In this document: piece by piece, positions 39,722 through 48,126 of the stretch | Position numbering within the stretch: position 1 is the stretch's first letter | Layout: each line of letters starts with the position of its first letter | Source of the DNA: Escherichia coli | GTDB lineage: Bacteria > Pseudomonadota > Gammaproteobacteria > Enterobacterales > Enterobacteriaceae | Length of the DNA stretch: 64,000 nucleotides | Direction: 5' to 3' (one strand) | NCBI RefSeq assembly: GCF_016026235.1 | Contig: NZ_CP065613.1 | Notes under the pieces: generated by a model | The model's input: the letters and a program-made list of their open reading frames with translations, nothing else | Databases searched by the model: none | What the model was told of the DNA's origin: nothing | Position numbers and translations under genes: made by a program

Positions 39722-41164
39722 TTAAGCGGGTAATGTGATAACAAACCTTGTCCCCCGCGCATCTGACGTTACGGCAACCGTGCCTTTATGCGCGACAACA
39801 ATTGATTTCACTATCGCCAGCCCAATGCCGCTACCTTCGCCTTTTCGCTGGCGGGAGGGGTCAACGCGGTAGAAACGGTCAAACAATCGCGGTAAGTGTT
39901 CGGGCGCAATGGGCGTACTGGGGTTTTCGACGATAACTTGCACCTGATGCTCGACCGTCTGGCAGCGCACTACAATAGCCTCACTGGGTGGCGTATAACG
40001 TAGGGCATTAGAAAGCAGGTTGCTTAATGCCCGACGCAGCATCAGCGGATCGCCCGCAACCTGACATTCGTCGCCAACAAATCGCAACTCCACGCCGCGA
40101 TCTTCCGCTAACGCCTCGAAAAAATCGAACACTTTGCCGACTTCATCCGCCAGGTTGAGCATTTTCTTTTCGGGGATTAGCTGGTTGTTATCGGCCTGAG
40201 CGAGAAACAGCATATCGCTGACCATTTTCGCCATTCGCGTCAGCTCTTCGAGATTAGAGTAGAGCACATCTTCCAGCTCCTTCTGGCTGCGCGACTGGCT
40301 GAGGGCGATTTCGGTTTGCGTTATGAGATTCGTAATTGGTGTGCGAATTTCGTGGGCGATGTCCGCTGAGAAATTGGACTGGCGGGTAAAGACATCCTCA
40401 ATACGCTCGATCATATGGTTGAACGACAGTACCAGCTGTTCCAGCTCAATGGGCACGGTCTGCGGGTCAAGGCGGACGTCGAGATCTTTCGAGGTGATAT
40501 TCTGGATTTGACGGCTGACGCTGCGGATCGGCGCGTGACCTTTATGTACCGCCAACAGTACGATAAAGACGATCAGGATGCTGATGATCGATGCGGTCAT
40601 AATAAGTTTATTCATCAAATCATTTATGTAATGAAGATGAAAATCGATCGAAAGCGCGATATAGAGCGTATAAATCGGTTTTCCGTCCACCAACGGGCCA
40701 ACCGGCAAGTTAATCATCCGCCAGTTGCTGTGTTCCATATGCCCGTGACCGTGGCCTGGCATCATCATCGTCGGGCCGGAAAGGAGATACACCTCACCGC
40801 CCCGCGCGTCTTTATCGGGTATGGCGTCACACGCAAACTCGCGGATATCCGGCGCACCGGGGGAGTGATACACCGTTTTACCCTGACTATCTGCCAGGGA
40901 AATCAACACGTTGGAATAACCACTGACGATATCTTCCAGCGTCATTAAGCGTCGGGCTTGCGTTTCGTCAGGGTGATTTAGTACCCGTTCAAGGGTGGCG
41001 CTAATCTCTTTTAAATCATTAATATCCTGCTCGGCAAAATGCACTTTTACTGAGTGGATCATGATCCATGCAAAGGCGAAAAACGCCGCGATGGTGGCCA
41101 GGCTGATAAAAAAGGTCAGGCGGGTTGCCAGCGAAAACGGACGCTGAAATGGTTTACTGACCAT
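39722..41164 (-). CDS. cusS: Copper/silver-sensing histidine kinase
   Basis: 480 aa from [13 protein letters not shown], HisKA and HATPase regions; overlaps cusR. Confidence 0.92.
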
Positions 41165-41837
41165 CCGGCACCTCAAGCATGTAGCCCACGCCGCGCACGG
41201 TTTGAATCAGCTTCGGCTCAAAGTCGTTGTCGATTTTGCCGCGCAGCCGCTTCACCGCCACATCAATAGCATTGGTATCGCTGTCAAAATTCATGTCCCA
41301 TACCTGCGAGGCGATAAGCGAGCGGGGCAGCACTTCGCCCTGATGGCGGAGAAAAAACTCCAGCAGAGTAAACTCTTTACTGGTCAAAGTGATGCGCGTG
41401 CCGCTGCGGGTGACTTTGCGGCTGACGAGATCGACCATCAGATCGGCAACCTGAAACTGACTTTCGATAATCACCGCCGCCCCGCGCCGCAGGAGAGTGC
41501 GCACCCGCGCCAGTAGTTCAGCAAAAGCGAATGGTTTCACCAGGTAGTCATCTGCCCCCAACTCCAGCCCCTTGACGCGATGTTCAATGGTGCCAAGCGC
41601 GGTAAGCAACAGAATCGGCATCCCTTTATTGGCGGAGCGCAACATGTGCACGATATCCCAGCCGTTCACGTCCGGCAGCATAATATCGAGGATTATCAGA
41701 TCATAATCACCGGTCATCGCCAGATGGTAGCCATTCAGCCCGTTGTCGGCCAAATCGACCACAAAACCGGCTTCGGTTAACCCTTTGGTCAAGTATTCTC
41801 CGGTTTTCTTTTCATCTTCGACAATCAACAGTTTCAT
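41154..41837 (-). CDS. cusR: OmpR-family response regulator for the cus operon
   Basis: 227-aa ORF with receiver and winged-helix domains. Confidence 0.93.
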
Positions 41838-41902
41838 ATTTCCTCCGCATGTTGCCCGGGCAATTCTAGAGTAGCGGGATCAGATGGCAATCGCTTATTG
41901 GT

Positions 41903-41924
41903 AAAATGACAATTTTGTCATTTT
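41903..41924. promoter_or_regulatory. CusR box in the cusR/cusC divergent promoter
   Basis: Palindrome AAAATGACAATTTTGTCATTTT centred between cusR and cusC. Confidence 0.7.
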
Positions 41925-41993
41925 CCTGTCACCGGAAAATCAGAGCCTGGCGAGTAAAGTTGGCGGCATAAAATCACCAGAAATTATGAGCCT

Positions 41994-43376
41994 ATGTCTC
42001 CTTGTAAACTTCTGCCATTTTGTGTGGCCCTTGCGCTAACCGGTTGTTCACTGGCACCGGATTATCAGCGTCCGGCAATGCCCGTTCCTCAGCAGTTCTC
42101 ACTCAGCCAGAACGGCCTCGTTAACGCAGCAGATAACTATCAGAACGCGGGCTGGCGCACCTTTTTTGTTGATAATCAGGTGAAGACGCTGATTAGCGAG
42201 GCGCTGGAGAATAACCGGGATTTGCGCATGGAGACGCTGAAAGTGCAGGAGGCACGGGCGCAATATCGTCTGACTGATGCCGACCGCTACCCACAGCTCA
42301 ATGGTGAGGGCAGCGGCAGCTGGAGCGGCAATCTTAAAGGCGATTCAGCCACGACGCGGGAGTTTTCTACTGGCCTTAACGCCAGCTTTGACCTCGATTT
42401 TTTCGGGCGCTTAAAGAACATGAGCGAAGCCGAGCGACAAAATTATTTAGCCACTGAGGAAGCTCAGCGCGCGGTGCATATTCTGCTGGTTTCTAATGTC
42501 GCGCAAAGCTATTTCAATCAGCAGCTGGCGTATGCGCAATTGCAAATAGCCGAAGAAACGCTGCGTAATTATCAGCAGTCATATGCGTTTGTCGAAAAAC
42601 AACTGTTGACAGGTAGCAGTAATGTTCTGGCGCTGGAACAGGCTCGCGGGGTGATTGAAAGTACCCGCAGCGACATCGCTAAACGTCAGGGGGAACTGGC
42701 GCAGGCGAATAATGCATTGCAACTGTTATTGGGAAGCTACGGCAAGCTGCCGCAAGCGCAGACAGTAAACGGCGGCAGTCTGCAAAGCGTTAAATTACCG
42801 GCGGGCTTGTCGTCGCAAATCTTATTGCAGCGCCCGGATATTATGGAAGCTGAACACGCGTTAATGGCGGCTAATGCCAATATTGGCGCTGCACGCGCGG
42901 CATTTTTCCCATCTATAAGCCTGACCAGCGGAATATCAACCGCCAGCAGCGATCTGTCGTCATTATTTAACGCCAGCAGCGGGATGTGGAATTTTATTCC
43001 TAAAATTGAGATCCCCATTTTTAATGCCGGACGCAACCAGGCCAATCTGGATATCGCCGAAATTCGCCAGCAGCAGTCGGTGGTGAATTATGAACAGAAA
43101 ATCCAGAACGCCTTTAAAGAAGTGGCAGATGCGCTGGCATTACGTCAAAGCCTGAACGATCAAATTAGCGCCCAGCAGCGTTATCTGGCATCGCTGCAAA
43201 TTACTTTGCAACGGGCGCGGGCATTATATCAGCACGGAGCAGTAAGTTATCTGGAAGTGCTGGATGCCGAGCGTTCGTTATTTGCAACCCGACAAACTTT
43301 ACTTGACCTGAATTATGCCCGTCAGGTTAACGAAATTTCTTTATATACCGCACTTGGTGGCGGTTGGCAGCAATAA
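41994..43376 (+). CDS. cusC: Outer-membrane factor of the Cu(I)/Ag(I) efflux pump
   Basis: 460-aa ORF with lipoprotein signal (LTGCS); OMF family. Confidence 0.93.
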   Translation: MSPCKLLPFCVALALTGCSLAPDYQRPAMPVPQQFSLSQNGLVNAADNYQNAGWRTFFVDNQVKTLISEALENNRDLRMETLKVQEARAQYRLTDADRYPQLNGEGSGSWSGNLKGDSATTREFSTGLNASFDLDFFGRLKNMSEAERQNYLATEEAQRAVHILLVSNVAQSYFNQQLAYAQLQIAEETLRNYQQSYAFVEKQLLTGSSNVLALEQARGVIESTRSDIAKRQGELAQANNALQLLLGSYGKLPQAQTVNGGSLQSVKLPAGLSSQILLQRPDIMEAEHALMAANANIGAARAAFFPSISLTSGISTASSDLSSLFNASSGMWNFIPKIEIPIFNAGRNQANLDIAEIRQQQSVVNYEQKIQNAFKEVADALALRQSLNDQISAQQRYLASLQITLQRARALYQHGAVSYLEVLDAERSLFATRQTLLDLNYARQVNEISLYTALGGGWQQ

Positions 43377-43399
43377 CTTTTAACTCCAGGAGAGAATAA

Positions 43400-43732
43400 A
43401 TGAAAAAAGCACTGCAAGTCGCAATGTTCAGTCTGTTTACCGTTATTGGCTTTAATGCCCAGGCTAACGAACATCATCATGAAACCATGAGCGAAGCACA
43501 ACCACAGGTCATTAGTGCCACCGGCGTGGTAAAAGGTGTTGATCTGGAAAGCAAAAAAATCACCATCCATCACGATCCGATTGCTGCCGCGAACTGGCCG
43601 GAGATGACCATGCGCTTTACCATCACTCCGCAGACGAAAATGAGTGAAATTAAAACTGGCGACAAAGTGGCGTTTAATTTTGTCCAGCAGGGCAACCTTT
43701 CTTTATTACAGGATATTAAAGTCAGCCAGTAA
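43400..43732 (+). CDS. cusF: Periplasmic copper/silver chaperone
   Basis: 110-aa ORF with signal peptide and small beta-barrel. Confidence 0.93.
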   Translation: MKKALQVAMFSLFTVIGFNAQANEHHHETMSEAQPQVISATGVVKGVDLESKKITIHHDPIAAANWPEMTMRFTITPQTKMSEIKTGDKVAFNFVQQGNLSLLQDIKVSQ

Positions 43733-43747
43733 CCCAGGTTTAATGAG

Positions 43748-44971
43748 ATGAAAAAAATCGCGCTTATTATCGGCAGCATGATCGCGGGCGGTATTATTTC
43801 TGCGGCAGGTTTTACCTGGTTTGCAAAGGCTGAACCACCCGCAGAAAAAACGTCGACCGCAGAACGTAAAATCTTATTCTGGTACGACCCGATGTACCCC
43901 AATACGCGGTTCGATAAACCTGGTAAATCGCCGTTTATGGATATGGATCTGGTGCCGAAATATGCCGATGAAGAGAGTTCTGCGTCTGGTGTGCGCATTG
44001 ACCCGACTCAGACGCAGAATCTGGGGGTGAAAACGGCTACCGTCACGCGCGGGCCGCTGGCTTTTGCCCAGAGTTTCCCGGCGAATGTCAGTTACAACGA
44101 GTATCAGTATGCCATTGTGCAGGCTCGCGCCGCCGGGTTTATCGACAAGGTGTATCCGCTTACCGTGGGCGATAAAGTGCAAAAGGGCACACCGCTTCTC
44201 GACCTGACCATTCCCGACTGGGTGGAAGCGCAGAGTGAGTATTTACTGCTGCGCGAAACCGGCGGTACGGCGACCCAGACTGAAGGCATTCTTGAGCGGC
44301 TGCGACTGGCGGGAATGCCGGAGGCGGATATTCGCCGCCTGATCGCCACGCAAAAAATCCAGACTCGCTTTACGCTCAAAGCGCCCATTGATGGCGTGAT
44401 CACCGCGTTTGATCTGCGCGCGGGAATGAATATCGCCAAAGATAACGTGGTAGCGAAAATTCAGGGTATGGACCCGGTGTGGGTCACTGCTGCGATCCCG
44501 GAGTCCATCGCCTGGCTGGTGAAAGATGCCTCGCAGTTTACGCTCACCGTTCCGGCGCGACCTGATAAAACACTCACCATCCGCAAATGGACGCTACTAC
44601 CTGGCGTGGATGCCGCGACCCGCACGCTGCAGCTGCGTCTGGAAGTCGACAACGCCGACGAGGCGCTAAAACCGGGAATGAACGCCTGGTTGCAACTCAA
44701 TACCGCCAGCGAACCGATGCTGCTCATTCCGTCACAGGCGCTGATTGATACCGGCAACGAACAGCGGGTGATTACCGTTGATGCCGACGGGCGCTTTGTA
44801 CCGAAACGCGTTGCCGTTTTCCAGGCATCGCAAGGTGTCACCGCGTTACGCTCTGGTCTGGCGGAAGGTGAAAAGGTGGTTTCCAGCGGCCTGTTCCTGA
44901 TTGATTCCGAAGCCAATATTTCTGGCGCACTGGAGCGGATGCGCTCTGAAAGTGCTACCCATGCGCATTGA
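43748..44971 (+). CDS. cusB: Membrane fusion protein of the Cus efflux system
   Basis: 407-aa ORF, HlyD/MFP family. Confidence 0.93.
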   Translation: MKKIALIIGSMIAGGIISAAGFTWFAKAEPPAEKTSTAERKILFWYDPMYPNTRFDKPGKSPFMDMDLVPKYADEESSASGVRIDPTQTQNLGVKTATVTRGPLAFAQSFPANVSYNEYQYAIVQARAAGFIDKVYPLTVGDKVQKGTPLLDLTIPDWVEAQSEYLLLRETGGTATQTEGILERLRLAGMPEADIRRLIATQKIQTRFTLKAPIDGVITAFDLRAGMNIAKDNVVAKIQGMDPVWVTAAIPESIAWLVKDASQFTLTVPARPDKTLTIRKWTLLPGVDAATRTLQLRLEVDNADEALKPGMNAWLQLNTASEPMLLIPSQALIDTGNEQRVITVDADGRFVPKRVAVFQASQGVTALRSGLAEGEKVVSSGLFLIDSEANISGALERMRSESATHAH

Positions 44972-44982
44972 GGGAATAACCA

Positions 44983-47900
44983 ATGATTGAATGGATTATT
45001 CGTCGCTCGGTGGCGAACCGTTTTTTGGTGCTGATGGGCGCGTTGTTTCTAAGTATCTGGGGCACCTGGACCATCATTAACACGCCAGTGGATGCGTTGC
45101 CGGATCTCTCCGATGTGCAGGTGATTATTAAAACCAGCTATCCCGGTCAGGCACCGCAAATCGTTGAAAATCAGGTGACTTATCCGCTAACTACCACCAT
45201 GTTGTCGGTGCCTGGCGCGAAGACTGTGCGTGGTTTCTCGCAGTTTGGCGACTCTTATGTGTATGTCATTTTCGAAGATGGCACCGATCCGTACTGGGCG
45301 CGCTCGCGGGTGCTGGAGTACCTCAACCAGGTACAGGGTAAGCTGCCTGCGGGAGTCAGCGCCGAGCTGGGACCAGATGCCACGGGTGTTGGCTGGATCT
45401 ATGAATATGCACTGGTGGATCGCAGCGGTAAGCACGATCTGGCCGATTTACGCTCATTGCAGGACTGGTTTCTCAAATATGAGCTAAAAACCATCCCTGA
45501 CGTTGCGGAAGTGGCGTCGGTGGGCGGTGTGGTGAAAGAGTATCAGGTGGTTATCGATCCTCAGCGCCTGGCGCAATATGGCATCAGTCTCGCCGAAGTA
45601 AAAAGCGCGCTGGATGCTTCAAACCAGGAAGCGGGCGGTTCGTCGATCGAACTGGCGGAAGCGGAATATATGGTGCGCGCCAGCGGCTATCTGCAAACGC
45701 TCGACGACTTTAATCACATCGTTTTAAAAGCCAGTGAAAATGGCGTGCCCGTTTATCTGCGCGATGTTGCGAAGGTCCAGATTGGCCCGGAGATGCGCCG
45801 GGGCATTGCCGAACTAAACGGCGAAGGCGAAGTGGCGGGCGGGGTGGTGATCCTGCGCTCCGGCAAAAACGCCCGAGAAGTAATCGCCGCCGTGAAGGAC
45901 AAACTGGAAACGCTGAAAAGTAGTCTGCCGGAAGGCGTGGAGATAGTTACAACATACGATCGCAGCCAGCTCATTGACCGCGCCATCGACAACCTCAGCG
46001 GCAAGTTGCTGGAAGAGTTTATTGTGGTGGCGGTAGTCTGTGCGCTGTTTCTCTGGCATGTGCGCTCGGCGCTGGTGGCGATTATTTCGTTGCCGCTGGG
46101 GTTGTGTATTGCTTTTATTGTCATGCACTTCCAGGGACTGAATGCCAATATTATGTCGTTGGGTGGCATTGCGATTGCCGTCGGGGCGATGGTCGATGCC
46201 GCTATCGTCATGATCGAGAATGCACATAAACGGCTGGAAGAGTGGCAGCACCAGCATCCTGACGCCACGCTGGATAATAAAACGCGCTGGCAGGTGATTA
46301 CCGATGCATCTGTTGAAGTGGGGCCGGCGCTGTTTATCAGTCTGCTGATTATCACGCTGTCGTTTATCCCGATCTTCACCCTGGAAGGGCAGGAAGGGCG
46401 TCTGTTTGGCCCGCTGGCGTTCACTAAAACCTATGCGATGGCGGGTGCGGCGCTGCTGGCGATCGTAGTGATCCCTATCCTGATGGGTTACTGGATCCGT
46501 GGCAAAATTCCGCCGGAAAGCAGTAACCCGCTCAATCGCTTTTTGATTCGTGTTTATCATCCTCTATTGCTGAAAGTACTGCACTGGCCGAAAACCACGC
46601 TGTTGGTGGCAGCGCTTTCGGTGCTGACGGTTCTCTGGCCGCTCAATAAAGTTGGCGGGGAATTTTTACCGCAGATCAATGAAGGCGACTTGTTGTATAT
46701 GCCATCGACGCTGCCGGGGATTTCCGCAGCAGAGGCGGCGAGTATGCTGCAAAAAACCGACAAGCTAATTATGAGCGTACCTGAAGTGGCGCGGGTATTT
46801 GGCAAAACCGGGAAAGCGGAAACCGCCACCGACTCTGCTCCGCTGGAGATGGTGGAAACGACCATCCAGCTTAAGCCACAGGATCAGTGGCGGCCAGGCA
46901 TGACGATGGACAAAATCATTGAGGAACTGGATAACACCGTGCGTCTGCCGGGGCTGGCGAATCTGTGGGTGCCGCCAATTCGTAACCGTATCGATATGCT
47001 CTCAACCGGCATTAAAAGCCCCATCGGCATTAAAGTTTCCGGCACTGTGCTGGCGGATATCGACGCGATGGCGGAGCAAATTGAAGAGGTGGCACGAACG
47101 GTGCCAGGCGTGGCTTCTGCGCTTGCCGAGCGTCTGGAAGGTGGGCGCTATATCAACGTTGAGATTAACCGTGAAAAAGCCGCACGTTACGGTATGACGG
47201 TGGCGGATGTGCAGTTGTTTGTGACTTCTGCGGTGGGCGGGGCGATGGTTGGCGAAACGGTGGAAGGGATTGCCCGTTATCCCATTAATCTGCGTTATCC
47301 GCAAAGCTGGCGCGATAGTCCGCAGGCACTGCGCCAGTTGCCGATCCTGACGCCGATGAAGCAGCAAATCACTCTGGCAGACGTGGCCGATGTTAAAGTC
47401 TCTACCGGACCGTCGATGCTGAAAACCGAGAATGCGCGCCCGACGAGCTGGATTTATATCGATGCCCGCGATCGTGACATGGTGTCGGTGGTTCACGATT
47501 TGCAAAAAGCGATAGCTGAAAAAGTGCAGTTAAAACCGGGCACCAGTGTGGCATTCTCCGGGCAGTTCGAGCTACTGGAGCGCGCCAACCATAAGCTTAA
47601 ACTCATGGTGCCGATGACGTTGATGATTATCTTCGTGCTGTTGTATCTGGCGTTCCGTCGGGTGGGCGAAGCGTTGCTGATTATTAGCAGCGTACCGTTT
47701 GCGCTGGTGGGCGGCATCTGGTTGCTGTGGTGGATGGGCTTTCATCTTTCCGTGGCGACGGGCACCGGTTTTATTGCCCTTGCCGGGGTCGCCGCCGAAT
47801 TTGGCGTGGTGATGCTGATGTATTTACGTCACGCCATAGAGGCCGAGCCGTCGTTGAATAATCCGCAAACATTCAGCGAGCAGAAGCTGGATGAGGCGTT

Positions 47901-48126
47901 GTATCACGGCGCGGTACTGCGCGTGCGCCCGAAAGCGATGACGGTGGCGGTGATTATCGCTGGTCTGCTGCCGATTCTGTGGGGAACAGGAGCAGGGTCA
48001 GAGGTGATGAGCCGGATTGCCGCGCCGATGATTGGCGGCATGATCACCGCACCTTTGCTGTCGCTGTTTATTATCCCGGCGGCGTATAAGCTGATGTGGC
48101 TGCACCGACATCGGGTACGGAAATAA
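44983..48126 (+). CDS. cusA: RND heavy-metal efflux transporter
   Basis: 1047-aa ORF with 12 TM segments, RND family. Confidence 0.95.

Follow-up and report, generated by a model that had tools for sequence, protein, structure and literature searches.

The region which separates cusR from cusC in the window (by which we mean the whole stretch of 64,000 nucleotides of Escherichia coli DNA analysed here) raises the question of which regulators it serves, and in particular whether the inverted repeat within it is the operator through which copper and silver switch on the operons on either side. A preliminary description of this DNA had named a palindromic CusR box, lying in the divergent promoter region of cusRS and cusCFBA, as the expected binding site of a response regulator. 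We consider the 22-bp inverted repeat at 41903-41924 to be the CusR box of the E. coli cus locus, acting through the mechanism proposed below, and put the probability of this reading at about 0.95.

The locus itself is recognised from the genes on both sides of the spacer, which are as follows.

39722-41176, minus strand: cusS, Cu(I)/Ag(I) sensor histidine kinase (NCBIfam NF007345, 978 bits, above the cut-off, residues 5-484)
41154-41837, minus strand: cusR, response regulator of the OmpR/PhoB family, 227 aa (NCBIfam NF007346, 505 bits against a cut-off of 420)
41994-43376, plus strand: cusC, an ORF of 460 aa with an NCBIfam score above the cut-off
43400-43732, plus strand: cusF, NCBIfam score above the cut-off
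43748-44971, plus strand: cusB, NCBIfam score above the cut-off
44983-48126, plus strand: cusA, of the CusA/CzcA family, above the NCBIfam cut-off
41994-48126, plus strand: cusCFBA, the regulated operon, as given by the ORFs, NCBIfam and the annotation of matching records

The cusS reading frame was called from a TTG which lies 4 codons upstream of the annotated start, the annotated gene being 1443 nt long in matching records. The PGAP/K-12 annotation of the matching E. coli records gives cusRS together with cusCFBA, and the gene order in the matching record and in K-12 MG1655 is nfrB, cusS, cusR, cusC, cusF, cusB, cusA, pheP. A 651-bp piece around the box found matches in 5336 of 5426 complete E. 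coli genomes, and these were always annotated as cusR and cusC. From the start codon of the cusR ORF on the minus strand to that of the cusC ORF on the plus strand, the spacer measures exactly 156 bp (41838-41993); the limits first proposed for it, and the placing of the box between divergently transcribed operons, are therefore correct.

On the cusC side of the spacer the locus differs from K-12 in two respects. A 125-nt insertion is present between cusC and cusF in K-12 (L002 4972-5132) and absent from the window (43374-43400); we take it to resemble an ERIC/IRU intergenic repeat. The K-12 cusC gene also stops 3 codons sooner, at a TGA where the window has TGG, and thus encodes 457 aa as compared with 460 aa.

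The element on which the question turns can be described in one line.

41903-41924, no strand assigned: CusR box, AAAATGACAA-TT-TTGTCATTTT, reported to be common to CusR and HprR

The 22-mer at these positions is AAAATGACAATTTTGTCATTTT, a perfect inverted repeat with arms of 10 nt each (41903-41912 and 41915-41924) which are 100% complementary and are separated by a 2-nt spacer. The place and the complementary arms given in the preliminary description hold, whilst the word palindrome is loose because the central TT is not self-complementary. A search with AAAATGACAANNTTGTCATTTT, allowing up to 3 mismatches, returned 1 match in the 64-kb window and none in 100 dinucleotide-preserving shuffles, and the match at 41903-41924 is exact, with 0 mismatches. 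The centre of the box falls at 41913.5, the ATG codons of cusR and cusC being 76.5 bp and 80.5 bp away, respectively. Elsewhere in the window a looser search for the core, TGACAANNTTGTCA, tolerating at most 2 mismatches, gave a single extra match, at 26044; as the shuffles gave a mean of 2.6, it was not retained as a second site. A further inverted repeat, ATTTTCCTGT / ACCGGAAAAT (41920-41929 / 41931-41940), has arms that are 90% complementary and shares bases both with the right end of the box and with the third half-site considered below. As sil, Citrobacter and Providencia do not conserve it, this repeat was treated as probably due to chance.

In sequence the repeat agrees with the CusR box published for E. 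coli, AAAATGACAAnnTTGTCATTTT (PMC11195947), and the binding data point to the same place. ChIP-chip of CusR in 2 mM copper gave a single genomic peak, in the cusR-cusC spacer (bioRxiv 10.1101/2020.08.17.251918), and genomic SELEX with unphosphorylated CusR, which is described as a repressor of its single target, recovered that same spacer as its only target (PMC8249747). PcusC and PcusR are both reported to be activated by phosphorylated CusR, and according to the available text of the Reg-Seq study the cusC promoter is expressed only when copper is added, a text in which no site-directed box mutant is described. Taken with the NCBIfam hits of the flanking genes, the agreement with the published consensus and the ChIP-chip and genomic SELEX peaks support the assignment to CusR. 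As an account of the regulators which act here, however, the original description was incomplete, as HprR and PhoB have also been published at this spacer. HprR, which responds to peroxide and hypochlorite, recognises the same sequence as CusR with a differing affinity; the box is reported to be its high-affinity target, and its strongest genomic SELEX peak in K-12 lies in the cusR-cusC spacer, exceeding that at its own hprR-hiuH spacer (PMC8249747).

These experiments were carried out with K-12, and their transfer to the window depends on how similar the two loci are. The 156-bp spacer is identical to that of K-12 at 154 of 156 positions, with the box unchanged, and CusR itself at 226 of 227 residues, the sole change (R64H) lying in the receiver domain and the DNA-binding domain being identical. 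Given this spacer identity and the unchanged DNA-binding domain, the K-12 results can be transferred with confidence, and the function of the box in the window is accordingly one predicted from near-identity to K-12. The two differences, at 41902 (C in K-12, T in the window) and 41925 (T in K-12, C in the window), both directly flank the box. When exact 60-mers were counted in 5334 E. coli records, the combination C..C at these two positions was found in 3291, the K-12 combination C..T in 1767 and that of the window, T..C, in 57; the spacer allele of the window is thus rare. A 60-mer that includes the exact box is present in at least 5115 of the 5334 records (96%). Across the records C occurs at 41925 in approximately 63% and T in approximately 33%, and since C is also found at this position in E. 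whittamii, C. koseri, Shimwellia and sil, the T of K-12 is probably the derived state.

On each side of the box lies a candidate promoter element.

41863-41890, minus strand: putative cusR promoter, with -35 TTGCCA (41890-41885), a 16-nt spacer and -10 TAGAAT (41868-41863)
41955-41960, plus strand: putative cusC -10, TAAAGT, whose T, A and final T do not vary among the 8 cus/sil spacers that were aligned

The cusR promoter was the sole sigma-70-like match in the promoter scan of 41700-42150, agreeing with the consensus at 10 of 12 positions. No -35 was recognisable at the cusC promoter, as would be expected of a promoter dependent on an activator. The box lies 12 nt upstream of the cusR -35, and TAAAGT lies exactly 30 nt past the box, distances which are the same in cus and sil. 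From the conserved hexamers, putative transcription starts would fall near 41856 for cusR and 41967 for cusC; no published promoter or transcription-start coordinates were found in the biosensor and systems papers with which these could be compared.

A mechanism can be put together from these elements and the literature. According to published work, periplasmic Cu(I) or Ag(I) activates the CusS kinase, which phosphorylates CusR; bound to the box in the 156-bp spacer, CusR turns on both divergent promoters, so that cusRS is positively autoregulated and the CusCFBA efflux pump is induced. If the conserved -10 elements are those used, the centre of the box would lie at about -53 relative to the cusC start and about -57 relative to the cusR start. 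The cusC promoter, having no -35, should depend fully on the activator, whilst the cusR promoter, with its good -35 and -10 (10/12), should give the basal expression that the sensor needs in addition to positive feedback.

Comparison with other genomes was used to ask what is conserved around the box. A scan for the exact box, with one genome per species, gave 37 loci; as these were picked by the box itself they are silent on its own conservation, but they do provide an independent test of what flanks it. Approximately 16 of the 37 adjoin cusR homologues, in Escherichia, Citrobacter koseri, Shimwellia, 6-7 Providencia, Psychromonas, Acinetobacter and a Rhodocyclaceae MAG. The exact box was also found upstream of a multicopper oxidase gene in Enterovibrio (L023 10944-10965) and of a CusB/HlyD-like gene in a Salinisphaera MAG (L017 765-786), and within the stretches fetched for these two loci no cusR homologue was found. 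Exact matches in low-GC genomes (Mollicutes, Clostridia and others) have no cus genes near them and were set aside as chance or unrelated A/T-rich palindromes.

Eight cus/sil spacers from four genera were aligned, and with the proviso that 6 of the 8 rows had been chosen by their exact box match, the sole invariant islands were ATTCTA at 41863-41868 (TAGAAT on the cusR strand), the box, a third TGTCA, A.CAG at 41939-41943 and the T, A and final T of TAAAGT. In cus, sil, Citrobacter and Providencia the box, the third TGTCA and the -10 on each side are kept at fixed spacing. The sil operon, whose spacer is paralogous to that of cus, was located through the similarity of silR to cusR and not through the box, and its silR-silC spacer carries AAAATGACAAcaTTGTCATTaT. 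On a sil plasmid the sequence upstream of silE includes TGACATCTTTGTCA (L040 13600-13613), which departs from the core at one position; the locus would be expected to hold a match this good by chance as well, so that it counts for little. A box-like site before silE recalls the reported CusR-dependent promoter of pcoE.

A related sequence occurs in quite different surroundings. The CG-centred palindrome AAAATGACAAcgTTGTCATTTT adjoins LacI-family genes in a Comamonadaceae MAG, Xylophilus and Klebsiella spallanzanii (L004 1529-1550, L008 3299-3320 and L026 4221-4242). In the first two loci transcription of the LacI-family gene runs away from the palindrome, the opposite flank of which holds an enolase-superfamily gene at L004 and a TctC-family gene at L008; at L026 the palindrome lies upstream of the LacI-family gene, and a ureidoglycolate-lyase-like gene occupies its opposite flank. 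There are no cus genes near the palindrome at any of these three loci, where it is probably the operator of an unrelated regulator family. Such copies beside LacI-family genes mean that the sequence alone is no proof of CusR binding. The box in the window was considered as a LacI-family operator and rejected, as its centre is TT and its neighbours are cusR and cusC.

The third TGTCA, at 41927-41931, lies 11 bp beyond that of the right arm, and together the two form a further element.

41916-41933, plus strand: Pho-box-like direct repeat, TGTCAT-TTTC-CTGTCAC-C, combining the right arm of the box with the third TGTCA

This overlapping repeat, TGTCATTTT(T/C)CTGTCACC (41916-41933), is a published PhoB site. 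Read from one base earlier, the 18-mer TTGTCATTTTCCTGTCAC (41915-41932; TTGTCAT-TTTC-CTGTCAC) agrees with the Pho box consensus CTGTCAT-AWAW-CTGTMAY at 14 of 18 positions; of approximately 128,000 positions scored in the window, just 3 attain this value. The 18-mer has the corresponding layout of two TGTCA-type 7-bp direct repeats around a 4-bp A/T-rich spacer with one C (T in K-12). The direct repeat of the window lies approximately 11 bp further from the putative -10 than in classical pho promoters. ChIP-seq of PhoB in K-12 identified the site TGTCATTTTTCTGTCACC at 595521, assigned to cusR/cusC, and expression of cusC fell approximately 4-fold, from 208 in the wild type to 50 in a phoB deletion (PMC10294691); an earlier study by ChIP-chip, reporter assay and EMSA also placed PhoB at the cusR-cusC spacer (PMC3465305). 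The window copy differs from TGTCATTTTTCTGTCACC by the one base at 41925, and this polymorphic position is inside the A/T spacer of the PhoB site; the window allele, with its C, is a candidate PhoB site by transfer from K-12. Three related response regulators, CusR, HprR and PhoB, thus converge on the cusR-cusC spacer, and with HprR on the same box and PhoB on the overlapping 41916-41933, signals of copper, oxidative stress and phosphate starvation would converge there too. The third TGTCA may extend the contact of CusR towards the cusC promoter. A further observation is that the invariant A.CAG at 41939-41943 lies 11 bp past the third TGTCA, and it may be a weak fourth half-site.

The arrangement of the half-sites leads to a different reading of how cusC is activated, in which the activator site is the head-to-tail TGTCA-N6-TGTCA at 41916-41931 and the left arm of the box serves only cusR or adds affinity. 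That layout is typical of winged-helix regulators of the OmpR/PhoB family, and the DNA complexes of BasR/PmrA, KdpE and PhoP use direct repeats; for CusR no complex with DNA is in the PDB, the nearest solved relative being the DNA-binding domain of PcoR alone. The third TGTCA is moreover invariant in Escherichia, Citrobacter, the sil plasmid and four species of Providencia, in spacers which have otherwise diverged around it, and it stands outside the search pattern by which the loci were collected. The 18-mer with its 14/18 agreement to the Pho box is also bound by PhoB in vivo (PMC10294691). Against this reading, the third site may be kept for PhoB and not for CusR, and there is no mirror-image third half-site on the cusR side. 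The second target of CusR and HprR, CATTACAAAATTGTAATG, is likewise an inverted repeat, and DAP-seq in Pseudomonas gave a CusR site described as a palindrome; on this account recognition of inverted repeats looks like a property of the subfamily. We regard activation of cusC from the direct repeat as unlikely, and retain the inverted repeat as the CusR operator.

The convergence of regulators could also be turned against CusR, by supposing that the repeat is primarily an operator of HprR or PhoB and that control by CusR in response to copper is secondary. The top genomic SELEX peak of HprR in K-12 is this very spacer (PMC8249747), and PhoB binds there, with cusC approximately 4-fold lower in its absence. 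Nevertheless, in every genus examined the box is linked to cusR and cusS and not to hprR or phoB; the cusR-cusC spacer is the single ChIP-chip peak of CusR under copper and the cusC promoter is expressed on addition of copper, whereas the effect of PhoB is small and the absolute expression low (208 against 50). A primary role for HprR or PhoB is thus very improbable. Least credible of all is that the repeat is an RNA hairpin, terminator or attenuator, or an A/T-rich palindrome of chance origin. A hairpin of 9 bp at -10.6 kcal/mol is possible, yet its fold z-score is -1.86, with 9 of 200 shuffles folding as well, and neither a terminator-like site (by scan) nor an Rfam match was found. The box is, besides, situated between two putative divergent promoters and, lying between their starts, would not be transcribed. 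Chance origin sits poorly with a window expectation of zero and with the recurrence of the exact sequence beside cusR homologues in distant genera.

Granted that the box is that of CusR, the operator might nonetheless be larger than 22 bp. It could comprise an inverted half-site at 41907-41911 followed by 2-3 half-sites repeated directly every 11 bp, two of them at 41916-41920 and 41927-41931 and the third, weak but conserved, reading xxxCA near 41938-41942; we hold this to be speculative and, on balance, improbable. Were it true, the phosphorylated forms of CusR, HprR and PhoB would assemble together on this array or compete for it, cusR would be driven from the palindrome whilst the direct-repeat extension would bring an activator to the missing -35 of cusC, and the polymorphism at 41925 would tune the input of phosphate and oxidative stress between E. 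coli lineages.

The results mean that the window holds the cus locus of E. coli, its regulatory spacer canonical and intact, and they add little beyond the annotation; as the spacer is intact, copper and silver inducibility can be assumed for the strain. Both the CusR box of E. coli and its cross-regulation by HprR and PhoB are fully known already, and nothing is new in the box, in its sharing with HprR or in the overlap with PhoB.

Among known systems the closest is the cus locus of K-12, whose CusR box (Munson et al., 2000; Yamamoto and Ishihama, 2005, as quoted in PMC11195947) is identical to that of the window over all 22 bp, and in which the position of the box, the flanking genes and the DNA-binding domain of CusR are the same. 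The sil operon (silRS / silCFBA) is divergent like cus, with its box at the same distances from TAGAAT on the silR side and TAAAGT on the silC side, and as in cus the spacer keeps the third TGTCA; in its regulator-side promoter TTGATA and TAGAAT are 16 nt apart, and 12 nt separate TTGATA from the box, just as the -35 is placed in cus. In contrast to cus, the sil box has one mismatch, in the outer right arm, the sequence of the spacer has diverged and the locus is mobile and plasmid-borne. The box of the hprR-hiuH spacer, CATTACAAAATTGTAATG, resembles that of the window in having inverted arms of 8-10 nt which end in ACAA / TTGT around a 2-nt centre and in its reported recognition by both CusR and HprR, but it has a half-site core of TTACA where cus has TGACA, belongs to another locus and differs in the reported relative affinities of the two regulators. 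The Pho box has the same core half-site, TGTCA, as the CusR box, yet it is a direct repeat, bound head-to-tail, whereas the CusR box is an inverted repeat, and in this spacer the two have one arm in common.
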